The notes under the pieces: generated by a model | The model's input: the letters and a program-made list of their open reading frames with translations, nothing else | The model's database searches: none | Told to the model about the DNA's origin: nothing | Shown: in pieces, positions 8,192 to 44,092 of the stretch | How positions within the stretch are numbered: the stretch's first letter is position 1 | How the letters are laid out: each line of letters starts with the position of its first letter | Translations under genes and position numbers: made by a program | Source: Candidatus Kerfeldbacteria bacterium | GTDB lineage: Bacteria > Patescibacteriota > Patescibacteriia > UBA9570 | Assembly: GCA_016182495.1 (NCBI GenBank) | Contig: JACPGK010000022.1 | Location: forward strand, 11,092 to 75,091 | DNA length: 64,000 nt | Direction of reading: 5' to 3'

Positions 8192-10885
8192 ATGGCACTG
8201 CTCACAAAATTATTTGGCGATCCTAGCGCCAAAGCAATTAAACAGTTGCAGCCAGTAGTGCAACGCATTACGGCCCTAGAAGCACAGTTTCAGTCATTGA
8301 GCGATGATGAACTGAAAGCTAAAACTGTCGAATTCAAACAACGGCTAAGCCAACATGAAACCCTTGAGCAACTTCTGCCAGAAGCTTTTGCCACAGTTCG
8401 AGAAGCTTCGCGCCGAGTGTTAGGGCAACGTCATTACGATGTGCAATTGCTTGGCGGCATGGTGTTACATCATGGTAAAATTGCCGAAATGAAAACTGGT
8501 GAAGGCAAAACGCTTACTGCTACTCTGCCAGTGTATTTGAATGCCTTAACTGGTCGAGGCGTACATGTGGTGACAGTGAATGATTATTTAGCTCGCCGTG
8601 ACGTTGATTGGATGGGGCGGTTATATCATTGGTTAAATTTGAGTGTTGGGTGCATTCAAAACCAAGGGGTGAGTTATCTATTTGATCCCGATTATCAAAA
8701 GCGGGCTGATACCACTGACCAAAGTACCGTCACCGATACCGAATTGGCCTTTAAAGTAGACATGGATAATTTACGAGCCGTTGATCGTACAACAGCCTAT
8801 CAAGCCGATATCACCTATGGCACCAATAACGAATTTGGTTTTGATTATTTGCGTGATAATATGGTGCAAACCATTGATCAGCGCGTGCAACGAGGCTGGT
8901 TATCTTATGCCATTGTCGATGAAGTCGATAGTATCTTAATCGATGAAGCCCGCACCCCATTAATTATTTCCGGGCAAGCCGAGGCAGCTACCAAGCAGTA
9001 TTATCGGTTTAGTCAGTTGGTGGAGCAATTGGTGGAAAATGACGATTATAACATTGATGAAAAAATGCGCGTGGCTACCTTAACCGATGGTGGCATTGCC
9101 AAAATGGAACAGTGGTTGGATGTGGTCAACATTTACGAAGCTGGCGGCGTAACTTTAGTACATCATATTGAGCAAGCCTTAAAAGCCCAAACCTTGTTCA
9201 AGCGCGATCGTGATTATGTCGTCAAAGATGGCGAGGTGATTATTGTCGATGAATTCACCGGTCGTTTAATGCCCGGACGTCGTTACAGTGAAGGATTACA
9301 TCAGGCCATTGAAGCGAAAGAACGCTTAGAAATTAAGCGCGAATCACGCACTCTGGCTACCATTACCTTTCAAAACTTGTTCCGGTTGTATGAAAAATTA
9401 GCCGGTATGACCGGTACAGCCGAGACAGAAAAAGAAGAATTTTACAAAATTTATAAATTAGATGTCGTTGTCATTCCAACCAATCAACCAATGGTGCGAC
9501 GCGATGGTTCAGATGCTATTTATCGTACCGAACGAGGCAAGTTTAAAGCCGTCGTCAACAAGGTTAGTGAGTTGCATCAGCAAGGGGTGCCAGTATTGGT
9601 TGGAACAATTTCAATTGAAAAAAATGAAATTCTGTCACAGTTATTAAACCAAGCTGGCGTGCCACACCAAGTGTTGAATGCTAAACAGCACGAACGCGAA
9701 GCCGAGATTATCGCGCAAGCTGGTCAGTCTGGAGCGGTCACCATTGCCACCAATATGGCTGGGCGAGGGGTAGATATCATCTTAGGCGGCAATCCGCCCG
9801 ATACTGTCCAGGCCGAGATCGTTCGCAGTGTTGGTGGTTTATTTGTGCTTGGTACCGAGCGTCACGAAGCCAGGCGAATTGATAATCAGTTACGTGGTCG
9901 ATCTGGTCGGCAGGGTGATCCCGGCAAGACGCAATTTTTTGTATCAATGGAAGATGACTTAATGCGTATTTTTGCCACCGATCGGATTAAAAAAATTATG
10001 GGTACACTGAATTGGCCCGAAGATATGCCCATTGAGAATGCCATTGTCAGCCGATCAATTGAAACTGCTCAAAAGAAGGTTGAGGGACATAATTTTGATA
10101 TTCGTGAACATCTCGTTAAATACGATGATGTCATGAATAAACATCGAGAGGTGATTTATCGAAAACGCAATGAAATTTTAAAATCCCCACCTGAAGATAT
10201 TAGTACACTGATCATGGAATTGGTTGAAAACGAAATTGAACAAATTGTATCATTTCATACCAATTTAGAAAATGAACATCAATGGAACATTCAAGAAATT
10301 TACGAATCAATCCGATCAATCTTTCCGGTGGATGAGCAGGTATTGGCTGATATAAAAGCTAAACAGCAGCAAGCCGGTAACAAACTGCAAGATGCCCAAG
10401 CACGTACTAGCCTGGTAGAATATTTGGTACGATTAGCTACTAACCGCTATCAAGCGATGGTGGCCGAAGTTGATAACGCCGAAGTGGTCTATAAAATTGA
10501 ACAAGGCTTTTATCTGCGCGCCATTGATACGTTATGGATCGAACATCTCGATCAAATGAGTTATTTACGTGAAGGCATTAGCTTGCGTGGTTATGGCCAG
10601 CGCGATCCATTAGTAGAGTATAAAAAAGAAGCCTACAGCATGTTTAGCGAATTAATCGCCAACATCCAAAAGCAAGTAGTGTACAGTATTTTCAAAATGG
10701 CCGATGCGTATTCGTTAGCACCATCGGAAATGAAGCAAGTGAAACAAGAGCTACACGGTGCTAAAAAAACGATGGGAAATGATCAAGCCGACTCGCCGAA
10801 CGACTTAGCAAAAGTAGGACGCAACGATCCTTGCCCCTGTGGCTCGGGGAAGAAGTATAAAAAGTGCCATCTCATTGGGAACTAA
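8192..10885 (+). CDS. secA: Preprotein translocase ATPase SecA
   Basis: It has the DEAD motor motifs ([38 protein letters not shown]) and the C-terminal zinc-binding tail [13 protein letters not shown]. Length 897 aa. Confidence 0.97.
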
Positions 10886-25244: not shown

Positions 25245-25484
25245 ATGAAACAGTTATATACGTTCATGATTAACGGTATGACCTGCCATGCCTGTGAAAA
25301 ATTAATTACCATGGATTTAGCCGAGGCTGGCTATGCCACAAAATCTATTAATCATCAGTCGGGTGAGCTAACGATTGAAATTGAACCGGTCGACGTTGAT
25401 CGCGTCAAACAAGCCATTCAACAGAGTAAAACCTATATCGTCACTGATGCGTACACTGTTACCGACGTTAAGCTTGCTCACTAA
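25245..25484 (+). CDS. copZ: Copper chaperone CopZ (HMA domain)
   Basis: 79 aa with [11 protein letters not shown]. Confidence 0.8.
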
Positions 25485-25494
25485 ATATACTTCT

Positions 25495-28197
25495 ATGTTC
25501 ACAACAATTACTCTTCAGGTTAAGGGAATGACTTGTCAGTCTTGCGAAAAAATCATCACGGCAGAATGTGAGGAGTTGCCTGGTATTCAAGATATAGCCG
25601 TTGATCACACTACTGGTGTATTCACTGCTTTGATTGATGATACCCAGACAAATGTGCCAGCTGTACAAGCGGCTATTGCCAAAGCCGGGTACGAATCTAT
25701 CGTTGTATCACAAACAGCTCTTGTAGATGCCAATGTCACTAACGACGTTGCATATCAAACAAACAAGCCATTTCAAGCCGGAGTCGAAACCACTATAGTT
25801 GCTCCTGTTAGCACAACTAAGCGAGTTAACTTGTCACTGTTTGGGATGCACTGTGCTTCGTGTGCCAATATTATTGAGCGCTCGGTCAAGAAGGTACCCG
25901 GTGTCCAGCAGGCTAGTGTGAACTTTGCCGCCGAGAAAGCCTTAGTTACCTATGATGAAGCTGCTACTAATGTTCAACAACTCATAGCAGCAGTTGAACA
26001 GGCTGGGTATACAGCCCAGGAAGTGAACCCCAAAGACACTGAATTTGAAACGCGCAAACGTCAACAAGAAATTCAAAGGTATTGGAAAAAGTTTTTAATC
26101 AGCATGATATTGAGTTTGCCGATGGTGTATTTTATGCTGTTTGATTTTTTTGACTGGATGCCAGGTGCCACGCAGCTATTGCCCTATGTTGGAGTAGCGT
26201 CACTGTTACTTACTACACCGGTGCAGCTTATTATTGGCGCGGGATTCTATAAGGGGGCGTGGGCGGCGTTACGCATGAAAACGTTTAACATGGATAGTTT
26301 GATTGCCATTGGCACCTCGACGGCGTATCTATATAGTATAGTGAATTTTATTCTCTATGCCGTCAATAATCAGTCATTATTTGGGCTGAATGGCGTCAAA
26401 ATTCCAGAGTTGTATTTTGAAACCGCTGCCTTTTTAATCACCTTTGTGATTTTAGGCAAGTGGCTGGAAACGCGCACCAAAGGCAGAACATCGGATGCCA
26501 TTCGTAAATTAATGGGTCTGCAAGCCACCACCGCCCGAGTGGTGCGTGATGGCATTACCCAGGATATTCCCATTGCCGATGTGGTGCTGGGCGACCATGT
26601 CATTATTCGACCAGGTGAAAAAGTACCAGTGGATGGCAAAATAGTCACTGGGTCATCAGCGGTGGATGAGTCGATGATTACTGGCGAGAGTTTGCCAATT
26701 GAGAAACAAATGGGTGATGCCGTGATTGGCGGCACGATTAATAAAACCGGTAGCTTTGAATGTGAGGTGACTAAAGTTGGCAGCGCTACGGCCTTAGCCC
26801 AAATTATTCGTTTAATTGAAGAAGCCCAAGGTTCAAAAGCACCCATTCAAAATTTCGCCGATCGCATTTCAGCGCGATTTGTTCCCATTGTCATTGGTAT
26901 TGCTATCGTGACATTTTTGGTGTGGTATTTGTTATTGGGTGCTAGCTTAACTTTTGCATTAATGGCGTTTACGGCCGTAATTGTGATTGCTTGTCCTTGT
27001 GCATTGGGGTTAGCTACACCCACGGCTTTAATGGTTGGTACTGGTCAAGGCGCCGAACACGGTATTCTCATTAAAGGTGGGGAACCGTTGGAAGCGGCTT
27101 GTAGCATTACCACAGTCGTTTTTGACAAAACTGGCACCCTTACAAAAGGTAAACCGCAGGTCACAGAAGTGATCAGTACAGGGCTGATGGATGACAGTGA
27201 AATTTTAGCGATTACGGCCAGTGTAGAAAAATTATCGGAACATCCCTTAGCCGAAGCTATTTACAGTTACGCCCAAGAAGAAGCGGTTGTTCTAAAAAAT
27301 GTAGAACAGTTTCAGGCTATACCCGGACACGGTGTAGCAGGTACTATTGATGGAACAGGGTATTTTTTTGGCAATCGTAAATTAATCACTGAACGCCTAG
27401 GCTTATCCATTGATAAAGTGCAACGTAAATTAGTACGTTTAGAAGAACAAGGTAAAACTGCCATGATGTTAGCGACAGCGCATGAATTACTTGGTATTGT
27501 TGCCGTGGCCGATACGGTTAAAGAAACATCTCGTGACGCCATTACTCAATTGCAAAAAATGGGTATTGAAACGTACATGATTACGGGAGATAATCAACGT
27601 ACCGCTCAAGCCATTGCTCAACAGGTGGGTATTACTAACATTCTCGCGGAGGTGTTACCGGAACACAAGGCTAATGAAGTAAAAAAGTTGCAACAAGCGG
27701 GTAAGCGCGTAGCGATGGTGGGTGATGGTATTAATGATGCTCCAGCGCTAGCCCAAGCTAATTTAGGTATTGCCATGGGCTCTGGCACCGACGTAGCGAT
27801 GGAAACAGGCGGAATTATTTTGATGAAGAGCGATTTGAATGATGTGGTGACGGCTTTTCAACTAGCCAAAGAAACCATGGGTAAAATTAAACAGAATCTA
27901 TTCTTTGCCCTGTTCTATAATGTGATTGGCATTCCAATTGCGGCCAGAGTTTTTGCTGGGGTTGGTTTAGTACTAAAACCAGAATTAGCCGGTTTGGCCA
28001 TGGCTTTTAGTTCAATTTCGGTGGTCGGCAATGCCTTGTTACTACGCTGGTTCAAACCAAAGCAGAAAAATTATATATCCATGATTGCACCGCTGATCTT
28101 AGCGTTGGTGTTTACTGGAGTCTTTATAGAATTTGCCCGATTAAGCAGTGGTATGGAAGATGAATCGGTCAATCAGAGTCTATCAGTTGCACAATAG
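25495..28197 (+). CDS. copA: Copper-translocating P1B-1 ATPase CopA with two N-terminal HMA domains
   Basis: HMA motifs [10 protein letters not shown] and [10 protein letters not shown], then [31 protein letters not shown]. Start chosen at MFTTIT (25495), after the copZ stop. Confidence 0.93.
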
Positions 28198-29932: not shown

Positions 29933-31348
29933 ATGCAGCGGATTACTCGGAAAAATTTTTTTGCAGCTTTAACGGCTGTTTTTTTATTCAGCGCTATTCC
30001 GGTTGTTACCCAAGCTGCTAGCTATATTCGATCACCACAAGTACGTTTGTGGTCAGAAACTAGCAGTGGGTATCAATCACCCAAGCAGTTTTTTGCTTAT
30101 GATGCCAGTTTTACTGGTGGTGGCACAGTCGCAGTGGGCGATGTCGGTAAAGATAGAATTAATGAAATTATTACCGCCGCTGGGCCGGGAGGTAGTCCGC
30201 AAATTCGGATTTTTCGAGTAGATGGCTCATTCATCGGACAATTTTATGCCTACGATCAAGGGTTGCGATCCGGCGTTAATGTGGCCAGTGGCAATATTGA
30301 TAAAGACGCCTCTGGTGAAATTGTCACCGCACCAAAACAAGGTGGTGGTCCGCAGGTGCGGGTATTCACTGGCCGAGGCCAAGTGGACCAAACCGTTGGG
30401 TTTTTTGCCTACGATGAACAGTTTCATGGCGGAGTGAATGTAGCCGTTGGTGACCTCACGGGTGACGGTATTGATGAAATCATTACCGGTAATGGCATAG
30501 ATGGATCACCACACGTGCGCGTATTTTCTGGTGCTGGCCAATGGTTAGGATTAGACTTTTTTCCATTTGCCGAAACTATGCGCGGCGGTGTGAGTGTGGC
30601 TAGTGGTAATATCGATGGCGGCAATGATGAAGAAATTATTACAGCGGTGCAATCAGGCGGTCAGGCTTGGGTAAAAATTTATAAATATAATTCCGCGCGT
30701 ACAATTATAGCTGAATGGAAAGCCTGGCCAGATGATTTTACCGGCGGTATCAACGTGGCGGCTGGTGACGTTGATAATGACGACCGCGATGAAGTGATTG
30801 TGGCTATCAATGGGCGAGGTGGACCGCAAGTAAAAATATTTGAAGCCGATGGCACCGCCATTAATCCAGGCTGGTTTGTGTACGAAGAAGATTTTTATAG
30901 CGGAGTAAGTGTAGCCGTCGGGCAAATTGATCAATCCGCCCAGGCCGAAATTGTCACCTTGCCGAGCAAACTTCCACCCGATGGCCGCACCGATGTTGAT
31001 CGGTATGTGCGGGTTGATTTAAGCGAGCAACGTTTGTACGCTTACGATCATGGTTATCAAGTAAACACATTTTTAATATCGTCTGGTTTACCCCGTACTC
31101 CCACACCGCCAGGGGAATATCATATTCAACGTAAAATTTATAGCCACCTGTATTCTGGCCCGGGTTATTATTTACCAAATACACTCTACAATTTACAATT
31201 TCGCCCGCACTACTATTTACATGGCGCGTATTGGCATAACAATTTTGGTCATCCCATGAGCCACGGTTGTGTGAACATTCACTACGATAACGCTAAGTGG
31301 CTGTACGATTGGATGCAGCCAGGAGATTTAGCAATGATTGAATTATAG
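29933..31348 (+). CDS. Secreted FG-GAP/VCBS-repeat protein with C-terminal L,D-transpeptidase (YkuD) domain
   Basis: It has a signal peptide and six or more FG-GAP-like repeats (..GDVGKDRINEIITAAGPGGSPQIRIF..). The C-terminal YkuD motif is SHGCVNIHYDNAKWLYDW. Confidence 0.75.
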   Translation: MQRITRKNFFAALTAVFLFSAIPVVTQAASYIRSPQVRLWSETSSGYQSPKQFFAYDASFTGGGTVAVGDVGKDRINEIITAAGPGGSPQIRIFRVDGSFIGQFYAYDQGLRSGVNVASGNIDKDASGEIVTAPKQGGGPQVRVFTGRGQVDQTVGFFAYDEQFHGGVNVAVGDLTGDGIDEIITGNGIDGSPHVRVFSGAGQWLGLDFFPFAETMRGGVSVASGNIDGGNDEEIITAVQSGGQAWVKIYKYNSARTIIAEWKAWPDDFTGGINVAAGDVDNDDRDEVIVAINGRGGPQVKIFEADGTAINPGWFVYEEDFYSGVSVAVGQIDQSAQAEIVTLPSKLPPDGRTDVDRYVRVDLSEQRLYAYDHGYQVNTFLISSGLPRTPTPPGEYHIQRKIYSHLYSGPGYYLPNTLYNLQFRPHYYLHGAYWHNNFGHPMSHGCVNIHYDNAKWLYDWMQPGDLAMIEL

Positions 31349-31861: not shown

Positions 31862-33256
31862 ATGAAAAAAGCAATCATTGTTTCGGTGATAACAACTGCC
31901 TGCCTGCCCATAGCTGCCTTGGCAGTTGATAGCATGAATCCAGAAGTACGAGTATTCAATGCTAATTTTGAACAAACTGCCAGCTTTACTGCTCTCGATG
32001 GTAAATTTCAAGGTGGCACAGATGTGGCGGTAGCCGATATCACCGGCGACGGCCAAGCTGAAATTATTGTAGCAGCCAGCCGGGGCGGTGGACCATTAGT
32101 ACAGGTATACCAGGCTGATGGCCAGTTGTTAAATCAATTTTTTGCCTATGATCAAAATTTACGTGCTGGTGTAAAGGTAGCCGCTGGTGATTTAAACAAG
32201 GATGGCAAAGCTGAAATTATTACGGGAGTAGAAGCTGGCGGCGGTCCCCAAATACGAATTTTTAATGGCGCTGGCCAACCCCAATTTACTGGTGGTTTTT
32301 TTGCTTTTGATAGCAGTTTTCGAGGCGGGGTAGATGTGACGGTTGGTGATTTTAATGGCGATGGTACAGTAGAGATCGCCGCTGCGGCTGGCCCAGGCGG
32401 CTCACCCCATGTGCGCCTATTCAACAAAAAAGGTAATTTTATTGGTACAGAGTTTCGGCCTTTTGCCGCTGATAATCATGGTGGCGTTAGCTTAGCCACA
32501 GCCAATGTGGATGGCGGTGCCGATGATGAACTGGTCATGTCTATTCACTCGGCTGGAGAAGGCTGGGTGAAAGTATATAAAAATAATGGTCAAATTATCG
32601 GTGAGTGGAAAAATTTTCCCGGCTTGTATAGTGGAGTGGTGGTAGCAGCTGGCGATGTTGATGCTGATGGGTTTGATGAAATTGCCGTAAGCCCACGACA
32701 AAGTGCCGGGCCACAAGTGTTGTTTTTTGAAGGGCATGGTCAATTGATGAATACCGGTTTTTTTGCTTACCCCAGTGATTTTCGTGGCGGTGTTCGGATA
32801 GCTGGTGGAGATACGAATGGCGATGGAGTTGATGAATGGGTCACTGTGCCAGGTAAAAATCGTGCCCAAGGTAGAGCCGACCTAGTGCGTTATATCGAAA
32901 CTGATATTTCTGAACAAACTACTCGCGTGTACGAATACGGTGAATTGGTGCGCAAATTTAAAGTATCAACCGGCATCGTTCGCTATCCCACACCCATCGG
33001 TCAATGGCAGGTGCTACAAAAAATCTATAATAAAGATTACGAATGGACGTACGGTCCTGATCATCCGGATAATTATAATATCAAAAATGTAAAATGGAAT
33101 TTACGCTATAATGGCCCACTGTATTTACACTATGCCTATTGGCATAATAATTTTGGCTACCGCATGAGTCATGGTTGTACCAATATTGATCGTGTCAATG
33201 CCGAGTGGCTTTATAATTGGGCCCAAGTAGGCGATGTTGTCATTAATAAAGATTAG
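31862..33256 (+). CDS. Secreted FG-GAP/VCBS-repeat protein with C-terminal L,D-transpeptidase domain (paralog of 29933..31348)
   Basis: It has the same architecture. YkuD motif SHGCTNIDRVNAEWLYNW. Confidence 0.75.
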   Translation: MKKAIIVSVITTACLPIAALAVDSMNPEVRVFNANFEQTASFTALDGKFQGGTDVAVADITGDGQAEIIVAASRGGGPLVQVYQADGQLLNQFFAYDQNLRAGVKVAAGDLNKDGKAEIITGVEAGGGPQIRIFNGAGQPQFTGGFFAFDSSFRGGVDVTVGDFNGDGTVEIAAAAGPGGSPHVRLFNKKGNFIGTEFRPFAADNHGGVSLATANVDGGADDELVMSIHSAGEGWVKVYKNNGQIIGEWKNFPGLYSGVVVAAGDVDADGFDEIAVSPRQSAGPQVLFFEGHGQLMNTGFFAYPSDFRGGVRIAGGDTNGDGVDEWVTVPGKNRAQGRADLVRYIETDISEQTTRVYEYGELVRKFKVSTGIVRYPTPIGQWQVLQKIYNKDYEWTYGPDHPDNYNIKNVKWNLRYNGPLYLHYAYWHNNFGYRMSHGCTNIDRVNAEWLYNWAQVGDVVINKD

Positions 33257-33812
33257 TTTTGGATTATGGTGGTGGCTGCCGATGATGGCTATGGCTGCCA
33301 GTATTCCACAAGCTTCGGATGTGATATTAGTATATGATAATGCTAATACTGAACAACAAGGTAAGTACAATTTTCTTTTTACCGTACAGAATGATCCTAT
33401 CATCTACCCTTGTGAAGGTAATCGTTGTAGTATGGTTAACTTTCGTGCACTAGGTGAAGCTACCATCACAGTATATAAATTACCAGAAGGATTTCCGCGC
33501 GTTGCTGGCCTGCAGGATCAAGCCAAATTACAAGAGTATATTAACCAAGCAGATCAGCACTATAGGCTTACTGGTATCGCCACAAATTGGGATACTACCA
33601 GCGATGGTCGGCCGTACCAGTTAGTGTATCTATCGCCTGATGGTAGTTACCGGATAGAGGCAGAAACCTATTCTAAGCCCAGTACTAACAGTAATGTTAC
33701 CACTGCCACGGATCGTACTACTTTACCCAAGTGGTTATGGGGGCTTATTGGTATCGGCACAGTAGTGATAGTGATAGCAGGGGCATTATGGTGGCGCATT
33801 CGACGACTTTGA
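33234..33812 (+). CDS. Hypothetical secreted protein with C-terminal TM anchor
   Basis: N-terminal signal-like segment and a C-terminal hydrophobic helix followed by RRL. Overlaps the upstream gene by 23 nt, so the start is uncertain. Confidence 0.4.
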   Translation: MLSLIKISFGLWWWLPMMAMAASIPQASDVILVYDNANTEQQGKYNFLFTVQNDPIIYPCEGNRCSMVNFRALGEATITVYKLPEGFPRVAGLQDQAKLQEYINQADQHYRLTGIATNWDTTSDGRPYQLVYLSPDGSYRIEAETYSKPSTNSNVTTATDRTTLPKWLWGLIGIGTVVIVIAGALWWRIRRL

Positions 33813-33828: not shown

Positions 33829-35532
33829 ATGACCGTTCGACGCCAATTACAACTGATGGTGTTAATGATTGTCTTGCTCACTGTTGGAGCGGCTGTGGTT
33901 GATTATCCTCAAGGACCAAATATTACTTGGCGGGGTGAATTAGTGCGGGAGTTAAAAATTCATCTGGGACTCGATTTACAAGGTGGTACCTCATTGGTCT
34001 ATCAAGCCGATGTTTCACAAGTACCAGCTGATGAAGTGACCGAAGCCATGGCTGGAGTGCGCGATGTGATTGAGCGACGCATCAACGCTTTTGGTGTATC
34101 AGAAGCCGTGGTGCAAACTAATCGGGTAGGGGAGAATTGGCGAGTGATTGTTGAATTACCAGGTGTTACCGACGTTAATGCAGCGGTGAAGCAAATTGGT
34201 GAGACGCCGTTATTGGAGTTTAAGGTAGAAAAAGTTGATGCTGAATTAACCGATGAACAACGTCAATTCATCCAATCATTAAATGAACAGAGTAAACAGG
34301 AAGCCCAAACTCTGCTTGATCGTATTTTGGCTGGAGAAGATTTTGCCGAAATTGCCAAAGCCGAAAGTCAAGATGATGCCAGTGGTGGCAAAGGCGGCGA
34401 TCTGGGTTATTTTGGTCGAGGTGATATGGTAGAATCATTTGAACAAGCTGCCTTTGCTGGTACAGTGGGCGAGGTGATTCCAAATATAGTGGAATCTGAT
34501 TATGGCTATCATATTATCAAGGTGGTTGATCATACTACGGGAAATCCAAATACCCTGAACGCCGCAGATACTAATACGGCTGAAAACGATGCAGTGGCCG
34601 ATGAAGAAGTGGTGCGAGCAGCTCATATTTTAATCAAGAAAATACCAGAATCAATCGATGTGTTTGGTCCGCAATACGATAACACCGAACTGACTGGCCG
34701 TAATTTAAAACGATCCGAGGTACAGTTTGATCCCACCACCAATCAACCCGTAGTCGCTTTACAATTTGATGACGACGGGTCAAAATTATTTGAAGACATC
34801 ACCAAAAATAATGTTGGTAAAACTGTAGCGATTTATTTAGATGGTTCGCCCATTAGTACCCCGTTAGTGAACGAAGCTATTAGCGGTGGTCAAGCCGTTA
34901 TTCAAGGAGAGTTTACGCTTGATGAAGCTAAACAATTAGCTCGGCGCTTAAATGCCGGAGCCTTACCGGTTAAAATTGAATTAGTGAATCAACGCAATGT
35001 TGGGCCCACGTTAGGCGAAGATGCCATTCAACGTAGCGTCACCGCTGGTATTTTAGGTGTTATCTTACTGGCTATTTTTATGATAGCCTATTACCGTTGG
35101 CCAGGGTTGGTAGCTGTACTGGCTTTGGGTATTTACACTCTAGTGTTATTGGCAGTATTTAAATTATGGCCAGTTACCCTCACTTTGGCTGGGGTAGCTG
35201 GGTTTATTTTTTCACTAGGCGTAGCTGTTGATGCCAATGTGCTTATTTTTGAACGCTTAAAGGAAGAACTACGTCAAGGCAAAGCTTTACAAACCGCTAT
35301 TGATGATGGTTTTAAACGAGCCTGGTTATCAATTCGTGATTCCAATGTGTCATCATTAATTACCTGTTTCATTTTAAGCTGGTTTGGCACTTCTATTATT
35401 AAAGGTTTTGCCGTAACATTAGCACTTGGAATTATTATTAGTATGTTTTCCGCTATTACAGTAACACGCACCTTACTCAAAGTATTACCAGTAAAACATT
35501 CATTATGGTACGGAGTGAAACAACCGAAATAA
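33829..35532 (+). CDS. secD: Protein translocase subunit SecD carrying a parvulin (PpiC)-type PPIase domain in its periplasmic P1 head
   Basis: SecD blocks LGLDLQGGTS, VELPGVTDVNAAVKQIGETPLLEF, AIYLDGSPISTPLV..ALPVKIEL, and the C-terminal TM bundle VDANVLIFERLKEE. The inserted segment GGKGGDLGYFGRGDMVESFEQAAFAGTVGEVIPNIVESDYGYHIIKV plus AAHILIKK is parvulin-like. Confidence 0.85.
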   Translation: MTVRRQLQLMVLMIVLLTVGAAVVDYPQGPNITWRGELVRELKIHLGLDLQGGTSLVYQADVSQVPADEVTEAMAGVRDVIERRINAFGVSEAVVQTNRVGENWRVIVELPGVTDVNAAVKQIGETPLLEFKVEKVDAELTDEQRQFIQSLNEQSKQEAQTLLDRILAGEDFAEIAKAESQDDASGGKGGDLGYFGRGDMVESFEQAAFAGTVGEVIPNIVESDYGYHIIKVVDHTTGNPNTLNAADTNTAENDAVADEEVVRAAHILIKKIPESIDVFGPQYDNTELTGRNLKRSEVQFDPTTNQPVVALQFDDDGSKLFEDITKNNVGKTVAIYLDGSPISTPLVNEAISGGQAVIQGEFTLDEAKQLARRLNAGALPVKIELVNQRNVGPTLGEDAIQRSVTAGILGVILLAIFMIAYYRWPGLVAVLALGIYTLVLLAVFKLWPVTLTLAGVAGFIFSLGVAVDANVLIFERLKEELRQGKALQTAIDDGFKRAWLSIRDSNVSSLITCFILSWFGTSIIKGFAVTLALGIIISMFSAITVTRTLLKVLPVKHSLWYGVKQPK

Positions 35533-36434
35533 AATTATATAATATTTTAGGCACGCGGTACTGGTGGTATGCTATCTCCACTAGTCTGATTATTGTCAGT
35601 TTGGTGATGTATGGCCTGTATGGTTTTCGTTTAGGGATCGATTTTACCGGTGGTTCATTAATACAAGTGCACTATCAAACTAGCGTCCCTAACCCCAGTA
35701 CTATTAATGAACAACTTCAGCCAGTTAATTTAGGCGATACCATCATTCAACCAGCTGGTGATAACACCATGATCATTCGCAGTCGATTTTTAAACGATGA
35801 TGAACGACAAGCAGTACTGGCTGCTCTCGGACCCGATGTAGTGGAAGATAGTTTTGAATCGGTTGGCCCGACTGTGGGAGAAGAGCTTCAACAAAAAGCC
35901 ATTCAGGCTATCGTACTCGTTATCCTAGCCATTGTTATTTATATTACCTGGGCTTTTCGTAGTGTGGCCAAAGGTCCGGTACCATCATGGGCCTATGGTT
36001 TATCAACGATCATAGCTTTAGCACACGATGTTATTATCACAGTAGGTGTATTTGTAGTGTTGGGGCATTGGTATGGTGTTGAACTGAATGCCATGTTTAT
36101 TACTGCTTTGCTCACCATTCTTGGTTTTTCAGTGCATGATACCATCGTGGTATTCGATCGCATTCGTGAAGGTTTACGGCGTAGTGCTCAACGCACCTTT
36201 AGCGGTGTGATTAATGAAAGTATTAATTTCACTTTAATGCGTTCTCTTAATACTTCAACCACCGCCTTGATTGTATTAGCCGTACTGTTTTTATTTGGAG
36301 GGGAATCAACCCGATGGTTTGTGTTTGCTTTACTTATAGGCATTATTGTTGGAACGTACTCTTCTATTTTTATTGCCAGTCCTACACTATTACTGTGGCA
36401 GAAATTTTTACGCGGTAAAAAAGGGTCAATTTAA
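35505..36434 (+). CDS. secF: Protein translocase subunit SecF
   Basis: GIDFTGGS is followed by six TM helices. Overlaps the secD 3' end, so the start is uncertain. Confidence 0.85.
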   Translation: MVRSETTEIKLYNILGTRYWWYAISTSLIIVSLVMYGLYGFRLGIDFTGGSLIQVHYQTSVPNPSTINEQLQPVNLGDTIIQPAGDNTMIIRSRFLNDDERQAVLAALGPDVVEDSFESVGPTVGEELQQKAIQAIVLVILAIVIYITWAFRSVAKGPVPSWAYGLSTIIALAHDVIITVGVFVVLGHWYGVELNAMFITALLTILGFSVHDTIVVFDRIREGLRRSAQRTFSGVINESINFTLMRSLNTSTTALIVLAVLFLFGGESTRWFVFALLIGIIVGTYSSIFIASPTLLLWQKFLRGKKGSI

Positions 36435-36483: not shown

Positions 36484-37560
36484 ATGCAAACTGGTTCTAT
36501 ATTAGATCGCATTATTGCTAGCAAAGAAGATCAAGCCAAACAAAATTTTGATCCAGCCGAGGTTATTGCCATTATTTTAAAAAAGCTCACCACTAAAGAG
36601 GCTGATGTTTTACAGCGCCGATTTGGTTTAAACGGGGTAGCTCAAGAAACCCTCGAAGCCATTGGTAATTCGTACCACGTCACTCGCGAACGAGTTCGTC
36701 AGATTGAAAATTTAGCGATCAAAAAGCTACAACACGATCCTAATTTTAGCAACCTGATGAAACCAATTGAACACGTTGTTATGACTGTTTTAGGTGAACA
36801 TGGTGGTATGATGAGCGAAGCCCAGCTGCTGGAAGAATTATTTTTAGGGGTGCGTTCGGCTAGCAATGATCAAGCTATTCTGTTTATTTTGTCAGAATTA
36901 GTTGATTATCGTTTCGATCAAATTGGTCCTGATGAAGAATTTCTCAAGGCTTGGAAAAATAAAACTACTGATATTGCTGCTATTGAAACAATCATTACCC
37001 AGTTAATTAATATCATCGCTGCTGCTAATCAGCCATTAAGCTTTGTGGATATTTATAATAAGATCAACGATCACACCATATCACGCTCGGCGGTAGAATC
37101 ATACTTACGTATTAGTAATCAGCTGGCTCGTAACCCTTTTGATGAATTTGGTTTGCAACAATGGGGTAGCGTGATACCGCGACGGATGAATGATAAAATT
37201 TATTTAGTATTAAAAAAGTTTGGTAAGCCGATGCATTTTGTAGACATCGCCCAAAAAATAACCGAAGTGTTTAAAAAAGAAGCCTATCCGCCAACCGTGC
37301 ATAATGAGTTGATTTTAAATAAACAGTATGTGTTAGTTGGTCGCGGCATTTATGCTTTACATGAATGGGGGTATCAACGTGGCGTAGTGGCCGATGTGGT
37401 GGCAGAAATTTTAAAAGCTAGCCCGCAACCATTAACGCGCGATGATATTGTGGCAGCGGTCTTAGAACAGCGGCTAGTGAAGCGTAATACCATTCATTTG
37501 GCGCTCACCAATAAACAACGGTTCGTGCGTTTAACGGACGGCCGTTATACTTTAGCGTAA
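36484..37560 (+). CDS. Sigma-70 region-4 (HTH) domain protein with unknown ~270-aa C-terminal region
   Basis: Residues ~30-90, KEADVLQRRFGLNGVAQETLEAIGNSYHVTRERVRQIENLAIKKLQH, match sigma70 region 4.2. It has no region 2 or 3. Confidence 0.55.
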   Translation: MQTGSILDRIIASKEDQAKQNFDPAEVIAIILKKLTTKEADVLQRRFGLNGVAQETLEAIGNSYHVTRERVRQIENLAIKKLQHDPNFSNLMKPIEHVVMTVLGEHGGMMSEAQLLEELFLGVRSASNDQAILFILSELVDYRFDQIGPDEEFLKAWKNKTTDIAAIETIITQLINIIAAANQPLSFVDIYNKINDHTISRSAVESYLRISNQLARNPFDEFGLQQWGSVIPRRMNDKIYLVLKKFGKPMHFVDIAQKITEVFKKEAYPPTVHNELILNKQYVLVGRGIYALHEWGYQRGVVADVVAEILKASPQPLTRDDIVAAVLEQRLVKRNTIHLALTNKQRFVRLTDGRYTLA

Positions 37561-37568: not shown

Positions 37569-39137
37569 ATGCCCCCGTTTCTGCAAGCTCTCCTGATCGA
37601 GTACGGCTCTAATCCATTCAAGGCATTTTGGTTTTTGTTTAGCCATGGTGGGTCCTTGGTGATTATTCCGTTTATGGTGCATTACGCTTGGCGTGGTTGG
37701 ATTTTGTATATTGAAGAATTAGTCAAACATCACCGTAAATACAAAATGTATCGCATTGAAGTACCGCAAAACAACGAACAAAGTATGAAAGCGGTGGAAC
37801 AAATTTTTGTACATATTTATGGCACCAAAGATCATCCTCATAATCGAGTGCATAAGTATTGGCATGGGTTTTGGCAAGAAGAATTTAGTTTTGAACTAGT
37901 TAGTGATGGTGGTTATATCAGTTTTCATGTCCGTACCCCAGCCTACTATGGCGAATTGGTTCAAGCAGCTTTTTATGCACAATATCCTGATGCCGTATTA
38001 ACCGAGATAGAGGATTATACTAAAGAAATTACTCCAGAAATGATTATGTCTGAAAAAATCCGTTGCTGGGGATCAGAAATGGAACTAGAACAAACTGATG
38101 TGAGACCAATTAAATGTTGGCCAGCGTGGGAACATAACTTAGTCGGTCGAGCAGTTGATCCGTTAGCTTCAATTTTAGAATTTATGAGTCGCCTTCAGCC
38201 CGGTGAACGATTGTGGTATCAATTAATTTGTCAACCAGATGACCTGCCAGAATTAAAAGAACGGGCCAAAGAATTGATCGATTCAGTAGTAGAACCTGGC
38301 GGAGTGCATCATGGAGCGTCAATTCTTGACCGTATTATTGATTTCCCAATAAAGTTACTAGAATATCTTGGTATGGCTGTATTTGGTGGAGAGGCTACTC
38401 CGGTCATTCACGAAACAGGTTTAACTGAACGACAACGTCTCACCACTCCAGAACGAGAATTAGTTGAAGAAGTTGATCGTAAAGCCTCTCGCTGGCCATT
38501 TCGCTGCAAGTTACGGTTTATGTATTTTGCTTCTCCAAAACTATACGATGAAAAAAAGGGCCGTCGCGGCATGGTAGGTGGATTAAAGTTGTATCGTTTT
38601 ATTAATGCTTTTGAAGAAGGTCATCGTACGCGTACCGAAGTAGCTACCTTATGGCTTCGTTGGATTGCTCCTCATATCAGAATATTGTGGCGAGCCCGTC
38701 GCATGCTGTGGGCCTATAAATCACGTGATACCGAACGAGGAGAGCATCATGGTTTTATTTTGAGTACCGAAGAAATTGCCAGTGTATTTCATTTTCCGCA
38801 AATTGAAGTGCGGGCGCCATTTGTGGCAAAAACTGCTAGTCGGGGAGTTGAACCACCCACTCAATTACGCTATGGTGCGGTAGAAGAAGCTTTGGTTGGC
38901 GCCAGTGTTAGTATAGAACGAGATGATGTTGCAGCCAACGAGTTACCGCGGGCTAATATTGTGCCTGAAGAGGCGAATAGTCATCCAGGAGCCATTCCTC
39001 CAGGAACGCGCTTCTCTACACCAATCGTTCGGGTTGAACCAACTTCGACTGCGGTTACACCAGTAAACACTGCCCCAGCTAGTGCCAAGGCTGAACCATC
39101 AGGCCCAACCCCACCACCTAATTTACCAATTGTGTAA
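37569..39137 (+). CDS. Hypothetical membrane-associated protein, co-operonic with TraD-like ATPase
   Basis: 522 aa with two N-terminal hydrophobic helices. The gaps are 8 nt to the upstream gene and 1 nt to the downstream ATPase. Confidence 0.45.
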   Translation: MPPFLQALLIEYGSNPFKAFWFLFSHGGSLVIIPFMVHYAWRGWILYIEELVKHHRKYKMYRIEVPQNNEQSMKAVEQIFVHIYGTKDHPHNRVHKYWHGFWQEEFSFELVSDGGYISFHVRTPAYYGELVQAAFYAQYPDAVLTEIEDYTKEITPEMIMSEKIRCWGSEMELEQTDVRPIKCWPAWEHNLVGRAVDPLASILEFMSRLQPGERLWYQLICQPDDLPELKERAKELIDSVVEPGGVHHGASILDRIIDFPIKLLEYLGMAVFGGEATPVIHETGLTERQRLTTPERELVEEVDRKASRWPFRCKLRFMYFASPKLYDEKKGRRGMVGGLKLYRFINAFEEGHRTRTEVATLWLRWIAPHIRILWRARRMLWAYKSRDTERGEHHGFILSTEEIASVFHFPQIEVRAPFVAKTASRGVEPPTQLRYGAVEEALVGASVSIERDDVAANELPRANIVPEEANSHPGAIPPGTRFSTPIVRVEPTSTAVTPVNTAPASAKAEPSGPTPPPNLPIV

Positions 39138-39138
39138 T

Positions 39139-41055
39139 ATGGCCAATGAACACATAACTGTATTTGCTGCTACCAACTTCCGTAATCAACGGCGCAATTT
39201 TGGTATTAAAGTTGATGATCGTCGCCGGCACATGTATTTGGTTGGTAAAACTGGCATGGGCAAATCAACCGTGATTGAGAATACTATTATTAATGATATT
39301 CGCGCTGGTCATGGCGTGGCCTTAGTTGACCCGCACGGTGATTTGGCGGAAAAAGTATTACGATATATTCCTACCAGTCGAGTAAATGACGTGATTTATT
39401 TTAATCCGGCTGACATTAATTATCCCGTAGCTTTTAACATTTTAGAAAGTGTTGGTCCGGAATACAAACATCTGGTGGCCTATGGTTTAGTAGGAGTATT
39501 CAAAAAAATCTGGGCTGATTCCTGGGGGCCACGCATGGAATATATTTTAACCAATACCATTTTAGCTTTGCTGGATTATCCCGGTAGTTCATTATTAGGC
39601 GTCATGCGCATGTTGGTAGATAAAGCCTATCGTAAAAAAGTAGTTTCTAAAGTGACCGATCCAGTGGTCAAAACATTTTGGACGGATGAATTCGCCAATT
39701 ATTCAGAAAAGTTTCGTTCCGAAGCCATTGCTCCAATTCAAAACAAAGTTGGACAATTTTTAGCTTCATCGATTATTCGTAATATCGTTGGTCAATCCAA
39801 AAGCACTATTGAAATGCGCGAAATCATGGATAATCAAAAAATTCTCATCATGAATTTATCAAAAGGCCGGGTAGGCGAAGAGAGTTCTGCCTTGCTTGGA
39901 GCCATGATGATTACGAAATTACAAATTGCCGCCATGAGCCGAGTAGATATTCCGGAAGAAGACCGCAAAGATTTTTATCTCTATGTTGATGAATTTCAAA
40001 ATTTTGCCACGGATAGTTTTGCTGGAATACTATCGGAAGCTCGTAAATACCGCCTCTGTTTAATTATGGCGCATCAATATTTAGAACAATTGGGAGATGT
40101 GGTGAAAGCAGCCGTGTTTGGTAACGTTGGTACTATAGTAGTGTTTCGAGTAGGTGCCACTGATGCCACAGAGATGGAGCCAGAATTCGCTCCCCAGTTT
40201 ACCGCGCAAGATTTAGTGAATTTAAAAAAATATACTTTTTGTTTACGTTTAATGATTGATGGAGTAGCCACCGAACCGTTTTCAGGCATTGGTTTACCAC
40301 CAGTCACCGGCGAAACCGATGTGTTTGATAAAATTATTCGAGTGTCGAGAGAACGCTATGCTCGCCCTCGCGCCATGGTTGAGGAGCGGATATTGCGCTG
40401 GAGTGGAGTGGAAATCACCGGTGCCATTAAACCGGCTGGTGAAGAAGCTAATACTGAAGCGAGCGATGAGGATACCACTGACGATACCACAATGGATATT
40501 CCTGCTGCTGTGGAAACTAATCAACCAGCGACTGGCTCGGTGGTAAGTTTAATACCAGAAGAACCCGACCTGCCAATAACTGTATCAACCAGTCCAGAGG
40601 TAAAGCCAATTCGTCCGAAGATTAATTTTGTTCGTTTGGAACTACCAGATGATGACATCAAGCCAGCTGTTCCGAATCCAGTAACCGTTGAAGCAGTTCA
40701 GCCCAGTACACCAGTCCCACCGTCTAAACCAATAGTTATTCCAGCTCATACTGTGTCCTTGTCAGATTTGCGCCAAGGCAATGTTGAGCGCGTTAGTTTT
40801 TCTGGCAGTCAAAACCGATCACCTCAACAACCACAGCTTCAACCACAGCCATCGACCATGGCAGAAGACCCTGTACGTAAAAAACGCCACCGCCGTCGCA
40901 ATAAAAAACCAAGCCAAGATCAATGGCAAAATACAACACCTGTACAGCCACCAATCCAACCAGTTCGTCCGCCTGCACCCAAGCCAGTGCCACCACCAGC
41001 CAACAATCAAACGATTGATCCAACCAAGGTATCATTGAATGATTTGTTTAATTAA
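39139..41055 (+). CDS. FtsK/HerA/TraD-superfamily P-loop NTPase (VirD4/TraD coupling-protein-like, TraG-D_C type) with Pro-rich C-terminal tail
   Basis: Walker A LVGKTGMGKST, VDPHGDL, Walker B-like LYVDEFQNF. The C-terminal 200 aa are low-complexity P/Q-rich. Start chosen at MANEH (39139). Confidence 0.7.
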   Translation: MANEHITVFAATNFRNQRRNFGIKVDDRRRHMYLVGKTGMGKSTVIENTIINDIRAGHGVALVDPHGDLAEKVLRYIPTSRVNDVIYFNPADINYPVAFNILESVGPEYKHLVAYGLVGVFKKIWADSWGPRMEYILTNTILALLDYPGSSLLGVMRMLVDKAYRKKVVSKVTDPVVKTFWTDEFANYSEKFRSEAIAPIQNKVGQFLASSIIRNIVGQSKSTIEMREIMDNQKILIMNLSKGRVGEESSALLGAMMITKLQIAAMSRVDIPEEDRKDFYLYVDEFQNFATDSFAGILSEARKYRLCLIMAHQYLEQLGDVVKAAVFGNVGTIVVFRVGATDATEMEPEFAPQFTAQDLVNLKKYTFCLRLMIDGVATEPFSGIGLPPVTGETDVFDKIIRVSRERYARPRAMVEERILRWSGVEITGAIKPAGEEANTEASDEDTTDDTTMDIPAAVETNQPATGSVVSLIPEEPDLPITVSTSPEVKPIRPKINFVRLELPDDDIKPAVPNPVTVEAVQPSTPVPPSKPIVIPAHTVSLSDLRQGNVERVSFSGSQNRSPQQPQLQPQPSTMAEDPVRKKRHRRRNKKPSQDQWQNTTPVQPPIQPVRPPAPKPVPPPANNQTIDPTKVSLNDLFN

Positions 41056-41058
41056 GTC

Positions 41059-42651
41059 ATGCAACGCGCTTGCGTTCAGTGTCATCAATCCTTCGCAGTG
41101 TTTGAGCGCGATCAAATATATTATCAACAGCTCGGCGTACCTACTCCAACCAAGTGTCCACAATGTCGCTTTCAATTACGCCTGTCGTTTCGGAATGAGC
41201 GTTTTTTGTATCAACGCAACTGCCAGCTTTGCCATCAACCAACGTTATCTCAATATGCAACAGATAAACCATATACAATATATTGTCGCCAGTGTTGGTG
41301 GTCTGATCAATGGGATCCGCTAGATTTTGGCCAAGTGATTGATTGGAACCGATCGTTTTTTGAACAATTCGCAGAGGTAAAACTACAGGTGCCGCGCTTG
41401 GGGTTACTCAATGATGCGGACAGTGAAAATAGTGATTTTTGCAACCGCGTAAACAAACTGAAAAATTGCTATATGATTTTTGACGCCGTTGCTAATGAGA
41501 GCTGCATTTACGGTTCCGGCATGTATGGCAATAAAGATAGTGTTGATTGTGATTATTGTGATCGCGTTGAGCTGTGTTATGACTGTAGCTATTGCACAGA
41601 CAGTTATGGTTTACGTTATAGCCGCGACAGCGTGAATTGTCGTGATAGTGCGCTATTAGTTGATTGTGTGGGCGTTTCCAATAGTTTGATGTGTGTCGGT
41701 TTACGCAATGTCCAATATTGTTATAAAAACAAACAACTAACCCAAGCCGAATTCCAAACCGTTTGGAATAATTCTAATTTTGATAAAATTGAATTTGAGC
41801 AATTTGCCCTAACAATTCCGCGGCGGTATTACCAAGGCGTTCACAATGACGATAGTAGTGGCGATCATTTAGTGAACACCCATGCCGTCCTAAATTCATT
41901 TCAAGTACGTGATAGTGAAAATTGTGGGTACTGCTATGGAGTACATCATGCTAAGGATTCCTATGACTATACGATTTGGGGTGAACAGGCTGAATTAATG
42001 TATGAAGATCATGCTTGCGGCGGGCAATGTTCAAAAATTTGGTTTGGAAACGTGGTGTGGTACGGCCATGATACTTTGTATTGCGACCATTGTTTAAACG
42101 GGGCAATTAATTGTTTTGGTTGTGTTGGTCTTAAGAATCAGCAAAATTGTATTTTAAACAAACAATACTCACCAGACGAGTATCAGCAATTAAGCCAACG
42201 TTTGATTGAGCAGATGCGTTTAACCGGAGAATATGGTCATTTTTTTCCAGCCAGCTTGAGCGATTTTTGTTATAATGAAACTATGGCCCAGGAATTTTTT
42301 CCCTTAACCAAACAACAAGCCTTGGCCAGTGGTTGGCAATGGCAAGATCATTTACCTGGTAGTTACGGCCAGGCTGATTTGGCGAAGCAGATTTATACTT
42401 GTGCAGCATGCACTAAAAATTTTCGTTTAATTGCTCCTGAATTAAAATTTTATCAGCAGCAAGGCATTCCCTTGCCAATCCGTTGCCCAGATTGTCGCCA
42501 TGCCGAGCGCATGAAATATCGTTCACCGTATCAATTATATAATCGTCAGTGTATGAAACCAGGTTGCCCGAATCATTTCCAAACAGCCTATGGTCCAGAT
42601 CGGCCGGAAATTATATATTGCGAGGACTGTTATCAGAAAGAGATGTATTAA
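41059..42651 (+). CDS. Cys-rich zinc-ribbon repeat protein, array member P1 (unknown family)
   Basis: 530 aa. N-terminal module CVQCHQSF..PTKCPQCRFQLRL, central CxxC-rich repeats (FGCVGLKNQQNCILNKQYS), the GEYGHFFPASLSDFCYNETMAQEFFPLT motif, and a C-terminal module CAACTKNFRLIAPELKFY..PIRCPDCRH. It starts 3 nt after the ATPase stop. Confidence 0.75.
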   Translation: MQRACVQCHQSFAVFERDQIYYQQLGVPTPTKCPQCRFQLRLSFRNERFLYQRNCQLCHQPTLSQYATDKPYTIYCRQCWWSDQWDPLDFGQVIDWNRSFFEQFAEVKLQVPRLGLLNDADSENSDFCNRVNKLKNCYMIFDAVANESCIYGSGMYGNKDSVDCDYCDRVELCYDCSYCTDSYGLRYSRDSVNCRDSALLVDCVGVSNSLMCVGLRNVQYCYKNKQLTQAEFQTVWNNSNFDKIEFEQFALTIPRRYYQGVHNDDSSGDHLVNTHAVLNSFQVRDSENCGYCYGVHHAKDSYDYTIWGEQAELMYEDHACGGQCSKIWFGNVVWYGHDTLYCDHCLNGAINCFGCVGLKNQQNCILNKQYSPDEYQQLSQRLIEQMRLTGEYGHFFPASLSDFCYNETMAQEFFPLTKQQALASGWQWQDHLPGSYGQADLAKQIYTCAACTKNFRLIAPELKFYQQQGIPLPIRCPDCRHAERMKYRSPYQLYNRQCMKPGCPNHFQTAYGPDRPEIIYCEDCYQKEMY

Positions 42652-42652
42652 T

Positions 42653-44092
42653 ATGATCAAGCAATGTGCCCAGTGCAGTAAAACCTTCCAGATTGATAGC
42701 AGTGATCAGGATTTTTATAAACGAATGCAGGTGCCAGTCCCAAAGCTGTGTCCGAATTGTCGTCAACAACGGCGCCTAGCTTGGCGCAATGAACGTAGTT
42801 TGTATCCAGGAACTTGCCAGCATTGTCGTAAGCCTCTGATTTCACTGTATTCACCGAACAAACCGTATACAATTTATTGTCAGGATTGTTGGTTATCTGA
42901 TCAGTGGGATCCTTTTGATTACGCTCGAGATTATAACCCCAAACAATCTTTTTTTGAGCAAGTCAGGGAATTGCAATTGGTTGTTCCGCGCATGGCTATC
43001 ACTATCCGAAATTGTGAAAACAGGATTGCATGGATTTTATCATGCCGTATCAATGTCAATTATGCTACGAAGTGATTGAATGCAGCGATTGTTACCACTG
43101 TTTATTTTCCCAGCGCTGTGCCAATTGCCGAGATTGCTATTTTTCCTATAATTGTCGTAGTTGCCATGATTGTTTTGGTTGCATCAATTTGCGTAATAAG
43201 CAATATTGTTGGTTTAATCAACAACTCACCGAGGCTGAATATAAAGGCCGATTACAAAACATAGCATGGACTCACCAAACCATTGCCGACTATCGTTTAC
43301 AATTCGCTCAATTAAAATTGACTCAACCACATCTGGCCAGTGAACAAATTCATTGCGAAGCTAGTACTGGCGATTTAATGAAAGGATGTAATCATACCGA
43401 GTATGGTTTTGATGTTTACGATCAAGAACACACATCATATGTCTTTGATGTTCGCGAGACCAAAGATAGCCATGATTTATTCATCGGCGGATTTGGTAAT
43501 GAATTAACCTATGAATGTCATAGTGCCTTGCAAACGCAACACGGTGTCAGTTTGAATGTTTGCTGGGATGGTAATTATAATCTGTATTATTGCGATCACT
43601 GTTTTACCTCACATGATTTATTTGGTTGTATTGGATTACGTCAGCAGCAGTTTTGTATTTTAAATACACAGTATAGTGCAGTTGACTATAAAAAAATTAC
43701 ACGACAAATCATCGCCGATATGACACAAACGGGGGAGTGGGGAGAATTTTTTCCAATCTCTTTATCACCATTTGCCTACAATGAAACAGTAGCGCAAGAA
43801 TATTTTTCATTAACTGAAGCAGCCATTAAGGCCAATGGGTGGCAATGGCAGTCAATGTCGAAAAAATTATCGAATTGTGCCAACTGAACTGGCATATTAT
43901 CGGCAATTTGGTGTACCAATTCCACAACTGTGTCCACAGTGCCGACACTTGGCGAGAATGAAAATGCGTAATCCGCGACAGTTGTGGCAACGTCATTGTG
44001 CCAAATGTGCTGCCATGGTTACAACAACCTATGCACCTGATCGGCCGGAAATTATATATTGTCAAGATTGTTATCAGCAGGCGGTGTATTAG
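42653..44092 (+). pseudogene. Frameshifted member P2 of the Cys-rich family (three frame segments)
   Basis: The N-terminal module (42653..43075), central part (43030..43887) and C-terminal module (43835..44092) are homologous to intact paralogs but lie in three different frames. Confidence 0.7.

Follow-up and report, generated by a model that had tools for sequence, protein, structure and literature searches.

Bacterial SecDF uses the proton gradient to swing its P1 head, pulling the emerging chain, and the way in which extracytoplasmic folding factors take over this chain has yet to be explained. The links found in Escherichia coli and Mycoplasma run via transient or multiprotein complexes that are hard to study. 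In Mycoplasma pneumoniae, the PrsA-like lipoproteins Mdp444, Mdp436, and Mdp489 form a dome over SecYEG–SecDF, and substrate density contacts a catalytically competent PPIC domain (10.1101/2025.04.25.650208; 10.1101/2024.09.05.611430). In E. coli, the parvulin-containing chaperones PpiD–YfgM and SurA are in contact with SecYEG/SecDF on the periplasmic side, at the exit (PMC9643414, PMC9987972). Here, we describe a SecD from Candidatus Kerfeldbacteria, encoded in a 64-kb stretch of contig JACPGK010000022.1 (hereafter, the window), with a parvulin-type peptidyl-prolyl isomerase (PPIase) domain inserted in its extracytoplasmic P1 region; sequence comparisons and structural models indicate that the inserted parvulin is circularly permuted. 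The organism, which has a small genome, belongs to the Patescibacteria, that is, the candidate phyla radiation (CPR). SecD and parvulin are both well-known families, and fused proteins are already public, annotated as SecD alone. Our literature search found no description of a SecD–PPIase fusion in CPR/Patescibacteria or of a permuted parvulin, with the reservation that coverage of subscription journals was partial and that absence is no proof.

The gene is an uninterrupted, single-frame open reading frame (ORF) at 33829..35532 on the + strand. Its product of 567 amino acids (aa) is identified as SecD by the NCBIfam model TIGR01129 (residues 46–550, 394.5 bits, cutoff 244.4), and NCBI lists the identical protein under the name [quoted passage not shown] Pfam matches, all above the curated cutoffs, cover SecD_1st at residues 77–133, SecDF_P1_head at 285–381, and SecD_SecF_C at 382–552; two parvulin models match in addition, Rotamase_3 (PF13616) at residues 151–235 (E 6.1e-24, 85.2 bits, cutoff 22.5) and Rotamase (PF00639) at 152–233 (E 5.3e-21, 75.8 bits, cutoff 21.7). 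A first-pass annotation, made from the sequence without database searches, had read the ORF as a covalent fusion of SecD and parvulin in the extracytoplasmic P1 region. The ORF and every motif that it quoted were recovered (IGETPLLEFKVEK at 123–135, GGDLGYFGRGDMVESFEQAAF at 189–209, GYHIIKV at 226–232, AAHILIK at 264–270, and VAIYLDGSPISTPLVNEAISGG at 332–353), and the fusion was borne out by the significant Rotamase matches and by its recurrence in more than 100 homologs.

The best 120 homologs were of the same length, showed 54–69% identity, and nearly all had precomputed Rotamase matches; the fusion architecture was present in more than 100 independent assemblies (NCBI, JGI, ENA, and Logan). 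To these we added a survey of 80 GTDB species-representative loci with ±10-kb flanks, in which the parvulin insert was found in 12 representatives, all from one Patescibacteria sub-tree, giving the lineage distribution that the first-pass annotation had called for. These numbers bear on the possibility that the fusion is an artefact, arising from a chimeric assembly or a frameshift, or that the motifs resemble those of parvulins by chance. Given the uninterrupted frame, the more than 100 independent assemblies, the 12 GTDB representatives, Pfam E values of 1e-21 to 1e-24, and a domain confidently predicted by AlphaFold2 (AF2), and with nothing found in its favor, we give this explanation next to no credence, and a chimeric assembly is ruled out by the recurrence itself.

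We located the insertion by comparison with Thermus thermophilus SecDF (3AQP). The N-terminal part of the P1 base (SecD_1st, residues 77–133, 34057..34227, +; PF21760, E 1.3e-15), whose last strand is LLEFKVEK, aligned with the Thermus protein up to residue ∼118, and the P1 head (residues 285–381, 34681..34971, +) aligned with residues 160–261. The parvulin falls between Thermus residues ∼118 (LEFRIVK) and ∼160 (LTGADL), a crossover segment of ∼40 aa in Thermus vs. an insert of ∼150 aa with a complete parvulin in the Kerfeldbacteria SecD. In the insert-less SecDs of other Patescibacteria, Chloroflexota, Melainabacteria, and Negativicutes, the same loop measures 3–60 aa, and unrelated inserts of 114–403 aa occupy the same spot in six further loci (L021, L055, L060, L073, L075, and L078). 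The placement relative to Thermus SecDF and the inserts of other lineages together indicate, at the sequence level, that the site is the hypervariable crossover loop from P1 base to P1 head and an insertion hot spot. The first-pass annotation had placed the parvulin in the P1 head, or in place of it, and between two elements of the P1 base; neither placement held. The canonical head is complete (PF22599, E 5.2e-30, 104.1 bits, profile positions 18–114 of 114), which rules out its replacement by the parvulin, and according to Pfam the second of the quoted base elements (VAIYLDG...) lies inside the head. The linker returning to the head, KIPESIDVFGPQYD (residues 271–284, 34639..34680, +), is tightly constrained in length and by eye resembles the Thermus pre-head segment KPEDLGPP. 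At the N terminus, AF2 predicted a transmembrane helix on the hydrophobic LQLMVLMIVLLTVGAAVV (residues 3–25, 33835..33903, +), which puts P1 outside the membrane.

A canonical parvulin starts at strand beta1 (x-x-H-I-L-V), which carries the first catalytic His, and ends at strand beta4 (G-Y-H-I-I). In the SecD insert, the native-order Pfam matches begin at profile positions 15 of 97 (Rotamase) and 32 of 116 (Rotamase_3) and leave beta1 uncovered, and the motif RAAHILIK sits 30 residues past GYHIIKV. When the insert was doubled head to tail, the Rotamase_3 match (residues 129–249 of the construct) spanned the junction of the copies and extended over profile positions 17–115. A re-permuted insert, with residues 256–272 placed before 152–240, scored 96.3 bits compared with 89.5 bits for the native order and matched profile positions 14–115. 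Over its whole length, the re-permuted sequence could be aligned to CsPinA (2m1i/2rqs), NmPin (2m08), PrsA (6xd8/1zk6/4wo7), SurA (1m5y), and PpiC (1jns), and in the alignment with solved parvulins VRAAHILIKK overlies beta1 (IKCSHILVKK, IKASHILVK).

Structure prediction agreed with this order. In the full-length AF2 model, the long strands 226–238 (GYHIIKVVDHTTG) and 259–270 (EEVVRAAHILIK) are separated by a lower-confidence loop. A model of the insert only (residues 134–283, based on an alignment of 45 homologs) gave one compact domain with a predicted local distance difference test (pLDDT) score of 91.5 and a predicted template modeling (pTM) score of 0.85, and residues 259–270 still formed a confident strand (pLDDT 91–97) without any SecD element to pair with. 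The SecD strand LLEFKVEK was considered as the parvulin beta1 and excluded, as the insert-only model starts after it, folds confidently, and uses 259–270. The model thus consists of a core from alpha1 to beta4 in native order (residues 142–238, 34252..34542, +; covered by the Rotamase_3 and Rotamase matches, pLDDT 89–98), a low-complexity variable loop (residues 239–258, 34543..34602, +; pLDDT 70–76), and the relocated beta1 with the catalytic His266 (residues 259–270, 34603..34638, +), the last assigned by AF2, alignment, and the doubled-sequence match. Foldseek placed the core on PrsA, Pin1, and Ess1 at 0.8–1.3 Å over 76–84 columns (e.g., PrsA 6vj4 with a root-mean-square deviation of 0.9 Å over 77 columns and Pin1 4tns with 0.9 Å over 84 columns). 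Relative to a full parvulin, roughly one strand is missing from these superpositions, as expected of an aligner that depends on sequence order. Both AF2 and Foldseek thus recover the four-stranded sheet and helices of the parvulin fold, whereas the canonical succession beta1–alpha1...beta4 is broken, with beta1 following beta4. The gap in the native matches, the scores of the doubled and re-permuted sequences, the end-to-end alignment, and the insert-only model all indicate that the domain is a circularly permuted, topological variant of the parvulin family, predicted to have a connectivity new to this fold. The AAHILIK strand listed in the first-pass annotation was indeed present, but it had not been recognized as a relocated beta1 with a catalytic His, and the permutation had been missed.

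The core contains D182/D183, GGDLG at 189–193, M200, F204, S223, and H228. We take the catalytic network of Pin1 (H59, C113 in the Asp position, T152, and H157) and Par14 (H42, D74, T118, and H123) to correspond to H266, D182/D183, S223, and H228 of SecD. The arrangement S-x-D...GGDLG is the same as in Bacillus subtilis PrsA. Across 58 homologs, the tetrad was retained at D182 in 47, at H228 in 49, and at H266 in 52, with Thr or Ser at position 223 in all 58, and the pocket residues L192, M200, and F204 were retained in 55, 42, and 48 sequences, respectively. Among the 46 nondegenerate homologs, nine insert positions were invariant, H228 and H266 among them. The six sequences that had lost H266 had all lost H228 as well, and from this joint loss we conclude that the relocated strand and the core are likely to share one active site. 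The conservation of the tetrad and the hydrophobic pocket suggests an active PPIase/chaperone that is not phospho-specific.

By sequence, models, and analogy to known systems, we consider it fairly probable that the insert is an active PrsA-type foldase fused to the SecD motor, with an isomerase/chaperone beside the substrate-capturing head. Several observations weigh against this. Six homologs (P0020, P0026, P0033, P0036, P0037, and P0043) lack both His residues and GGDLG and nevertheless keep a domain of the same length, and motif loss is partial in three more (P0025, P0027, and P0028); catalysis is hence not the force retaining the domain in every lineage. No SurA_N-type Pfam match was found in SecD, that is, the protein is without the N- and C-terminal substrate-binding chaperone module of PrsA, SurA, and PpiD. 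The full-length AF2 model reached a pTM of only 0.48, and in the 80-locus survey many Patescibacteria manage without the insert. The degenerate sequences, which form a sub-clade 59–66% identical to the Kerfeldbacteria SecD, are mutually related and represent few independent events; judging from their motifs, their foldase domain seems to be on its way to becoming a pseudo-enzyme, and the parvulin domain probably has a noncatalytic role as well.

The same sequences lead to the alternative that the insert mainly extends the P1 head as a noncatalytic chaperone or substrate-binding module, offering emerging chains a larger surface, as do the inactive parvulins of PpiD, SurA P1, and Mycoplasma Mdp436/489, and that any isomerase activity is weak or irrelevant. 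The retention of a same-length domain in close relatives after the loss of both His residues and GGDLG speaks for this explanation, and inactive parvulin domains are frequent in translocon-associated chaperones (PMC9643414; 10.1101/2025.04.25.650208). However, the tetrad and pocket are conserved in most homologs, H228 and H266 belong to the nine positions invariant in 46 sequences, and fold stability alone is hard-pressed to explain this invariance when the degenerate clade tolerates the loss. We regard a mainly noncatalytic insert as unlikely. The parvulin is also distinct from PrsA, PpiD, and SurA themselves: NCBIfam models of PrsA/PpiD/SurA type scored far under their cutoffs on SecD (69.8 vs. 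343 for PrsA and 41.7 vs. 493), and the parvulin is internal to SecD, with no lipobox, transmembrane anchor, or signal peptide of its own and no separate polypeptide.

The parvulin may also be held in a defined position. Among the 58 homologs, the tether from the base strand to N152 measures 14–17 aa and that from beta1 to the LTG motif of the head 15–19 aa, and the beta4–beta1 loop, of low complexity in the Kerfeldbacteria SecD, varies from 6 to 60 aa. As the tethers are constrained in length and both depart from the same beta1/alpha1 corner of the parvulin, we infer that the domain sits at the hinge, beside the mobile head. The chain of SecD enters the domain, extracytoplasmic and in the P1 crossover loop, at alpha1, runs through GGDLG to GYHIIKV (beta4), passes the free variable loop to RAAHILIK with His266, and returns to the intact head. 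Under the active-foldase reading, the parvulin would act on unfolded chains at the moment when the head of SecDF, driven by protons, captures them as they leave SecYEG, and export and folding help may be combined on one protein. The constrained tethers, together with conserved Pro/Gly-Pro residues in the return linker by the hinge, would also fit a parvulin whose target is SecDF or its partner machinery and not the secreted chain, for instance one that gates the base–head hinge by isomerizing a proline of the crossover linker (IPESIDVFGPQ) or docks SecD to another envelope component. This seems improbable to us: in sister Patescibacteria, the SecDs without insert show just a short, unstructured loop at this place, no partner has been identified, and the idea is pure inference. 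We know of no SecDF that requires a PPIase for hinge motion.

The active-foldase reading can be extended to a one-polypeptide translocation–folding machine, in which an active, naturally permuted parvulin, possibly the first described, would sit at the hinge of the P1 head with its cleft turned toward the head by the rewired termini, so that each power stroke would pass the chain to the isomerase; such a domain might have been captured from a tandem parvulin and might replace a stand-alone PrsA. We put this forward tentatively, and taken as a whole, it is possible but somewhat doubtful. The first-pass annotation had suggested that the reduced genome may lack PpiD and SurA. No stand-alone parvulin was found within ±10 kb of secD in the 80 loci, and there was no second parvulin in the window, which says little on the whole genome. 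Pfam scans of 45 window ORFs (most of the 57 of at least 110 aa) gave no cyclophilin or FKBP.

To describe the history of the insert, we computed a neighbor-joining tree of the insert-free SecD core; the tree is crude and without support values. The parvulin-bearing SecDs fell in one Patescibacteria sub-tree, with the Moranbacteria sequence L004 adjacent and the insert-less L009, L022, L027, and L036 interspersed among them. A single insert was present in 4 of the 80 loci, from Kerfeldbacteria, Komeilibacteria, Moranbacteria, and one further metagenome-assembled genome (MAG), while six Parcubacteria-type genomes, some of them labeled "Gammaproteobacteria" or "Binatia" but clustering with Patescibacteria, showed a gap of ∼245 aa with the order core–beta1–core–beta1 and two Peregrinibacteria SecDF fusions had the same double layout with the first copy degenerate. 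The remaining ∼65 of the 80, from Nomura-, Ryan-, Wolfe-, Taylor-, and Daviesbacteria, Saccharibacteria, Chloroflexota, Cyanobacteria/Melainabacteria, and Negativicutes, had no SecD parvulin. In sequence terms, the pattern fits an early acquisition, on one or a few occasions, with later losses and changes in copy number. Two of the interspersed insert-less loci, L022 and L027, have low-complexity acidic or Ser-rich loops of 47–57 aa at the site, which may be scars of insert loss. Ten contigs of the survey (L006, L008, L009, L011, L012, L025, L027, L037, L039, and L051) carry the titles "Gammaproteobacteria," "Binatia," "Vitreimonas," or "Muribaculaceae"; as the core tree groups their SecDs with those of Patescibacteria or Melainabacteria, the taxonomy labels of these MAGs are probably wrong.

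A search of the representative library with the insert only returned mostly multi-parvulin proteins among the top 150, ranked by summed scores, and SecD only as P0225 and the fragment P0265. In the tandem-parvulin proteins P0193, P0221, and P0242, the succession of the first core, a short linker, and the second beta1 is collinear with the SecD insert (e.g., GYHIVKVLDVRTSRGTIQVEHIFVK compared with GYHIIKVVD...VVRAAHILIKK), and in the double-insert SecDs an (S/A)H(I/L)L strand follows within ∼10 residues after each core. These two observations make it plausible, as a hypothesis only, that the insert was born by out-of-register capture from a tandem-parvulin array, a case of "permutation by duplication." In the double-parvulin SecDs L005, L006, L007, L008, L011, and L012, we also observed a conserved C-x6-C pair (SecD ∼260–300; e.g., LICWQGLTTCAQ, LVCWQGAKNCEQ, and LICYLGAVNCDA); it lies in the linker that leads from the first trailing beta1 to the second core and may form an extracytoplasmic disulfide loop.

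A natural fusion of this kind fixes the position and stoichiometry of the foldase in a system that is minimal and genetically defined, and it makes the coupling of prolyl isomerization to the SecDF cycle testable. The permuted parvulin offers a clean example of a domain rewired to suit its host loop. With the fused proteins annotated as SecD alone, foldases are under-counted in many Patescibacteria genomes, and this bears on arguments over which envelope functions have been lost in reduced genomes.

The motor itself appears intact. The SecD transmembrane bundle (residues 382–552, 34972..35484, +; PF02355) includes Asp468, which is invariant in the homolog alignment A1 and aligns with D340 of T. 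thermophilus. The adjoining secF is a separate 309-aa ORF (35505..36434, +; TIGR00966, 283 bits) overlapping secD by 28 nucleotides (nt); in its product, the Asp of GFSVHD and the Arg of TLMRS are aligned to D637 and R671 of T. thermophilus. We take D340, D637, and R671 to be proton-pathway residues. The window also contains secA (8192..10885). From these sequence features, the pair looks like the working, housekeeping SecDF of the organism and not a degenerate paralog. An ORF of 192 aa with hydrophobic segments at both termini (33234–33812, +) ends 16 nt upstream of secD and gave no Pfam match; in other bacteria, the position just upstream of secD is often taken by yajC.

Directly upstream of secD are also two paralogs (29933–31348 and 31862–33256, +) with FG-GAP repeats and a C-terminal YkuD L,D-transpeptidase domain, an architecture unusual for cell-wall cross-linking enzymes. 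Directly downstream of secF, an ORF at 36484–37560 (+) combines an N-terminal sigma-70 region 4 with HARE-HTH and is without regions 2 and 3, so its product is not a standard sigma factor. Three Fic/DOC-domain proteins (11020–12171, 12344–13369, and 14790–15848, +), the first also with Fic_N, lie just downstream of secA. A metal-handling cluster at 19401–28197 (+) contains a P-type ATPase, a MacB/FtsX permease, an ABC ATPase with a C-terminal YHS domain, a DsbD_2 membrane protein fused to HMA and cupredoxin (23861–25225), and a 940-aa P-type ATPase with two HMA domains. At 39082–55714 (+), there is a run of large ORFs, including a TrwB/VirD4-like coupling ATPase (39082–41055), five zf_Tbcl treble-clef zinc-finger proteins, and several ORFs of 520–570 aa without a Pfam match, ending at a tyrosine integrase (55871–56617, −). 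The GC content drops across 39082–56617 from ∼0.43 to ∼0.35–0.39, and the region may be an integrated mobile element. In the low-GC end of the window, an AbiEii-type nucleotidyltransferase toxin (61970–63253) follows a 205-aa ORF without a Pfam match, and the two (61360–63253, +) are probably a type IV toxin–antitoxin pair. Nearly all substantial ORFs at 1–55000 are on the + strand and the cumulative GC skew climbs steadily; tRNA and Rfam scans of the 64 kb found no tRNA genes and no Rfam matches.

Compared with canonical SecD and SecDF (T. thermophilus 3AQP/5YHF, Deinococcus radiodurans 5XAN/5XAP, and E. coli 5MG3), the Kerfeldbacteria protein has the same transmembrane bundle, P1 base, P1 head, and proton-pathway residues, and it differs in having the parvulin where the crossover loop of Thermus is helical and ∼40 aa long. 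The closest parvulin by both sequence and fold is PrsA, the lipoprotein foldase of Bacillus and Listeria, the core of which superposes on the SecD insert at 0.9–1.3 Å with 45–47% identity. The two share a non-phospho-specific S-x-D...GGDLG...GYHII site, an extracytoplasmic location, tethering to the membrane, and presumably a monoderm cell, whereas the SecD insert lacks the N/C chaperone domain and the lipobox of PrsA, is held by a SecD tether instead of a lipid anchor, and has a permuted strand order. The tandem-parvulin proteins P0193, P0221, and P0242 are SurA/PpiD-like and 640–670 aa long; in them, every beta1 is part of the canonical domain that comes after it, while in SecD the core is completed by the beta1 that trails it. 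PpiD and SurA of E. coli are separate polypeptides with chaperone domains in a diderm envelope, and the parvulin of PpiD is inactive. The Mycoplasma dome resembles the fusion in coming from a genome-reduced, wall-poor or monoderm cell, in placing parvulins over the Sec exit and in contact with SecDF, and in having only some catalytically competent copies. It is noncovalent and built of large, multidomain lipoproteins forming a chamber, as opposed to one small domain in the SecD fusion, or two in Parcubacteria. The PrsA-like dome of Mycoplasma is the closest analog, and on the most economical reading the SecD–parvulin fusion would be its covalent version.

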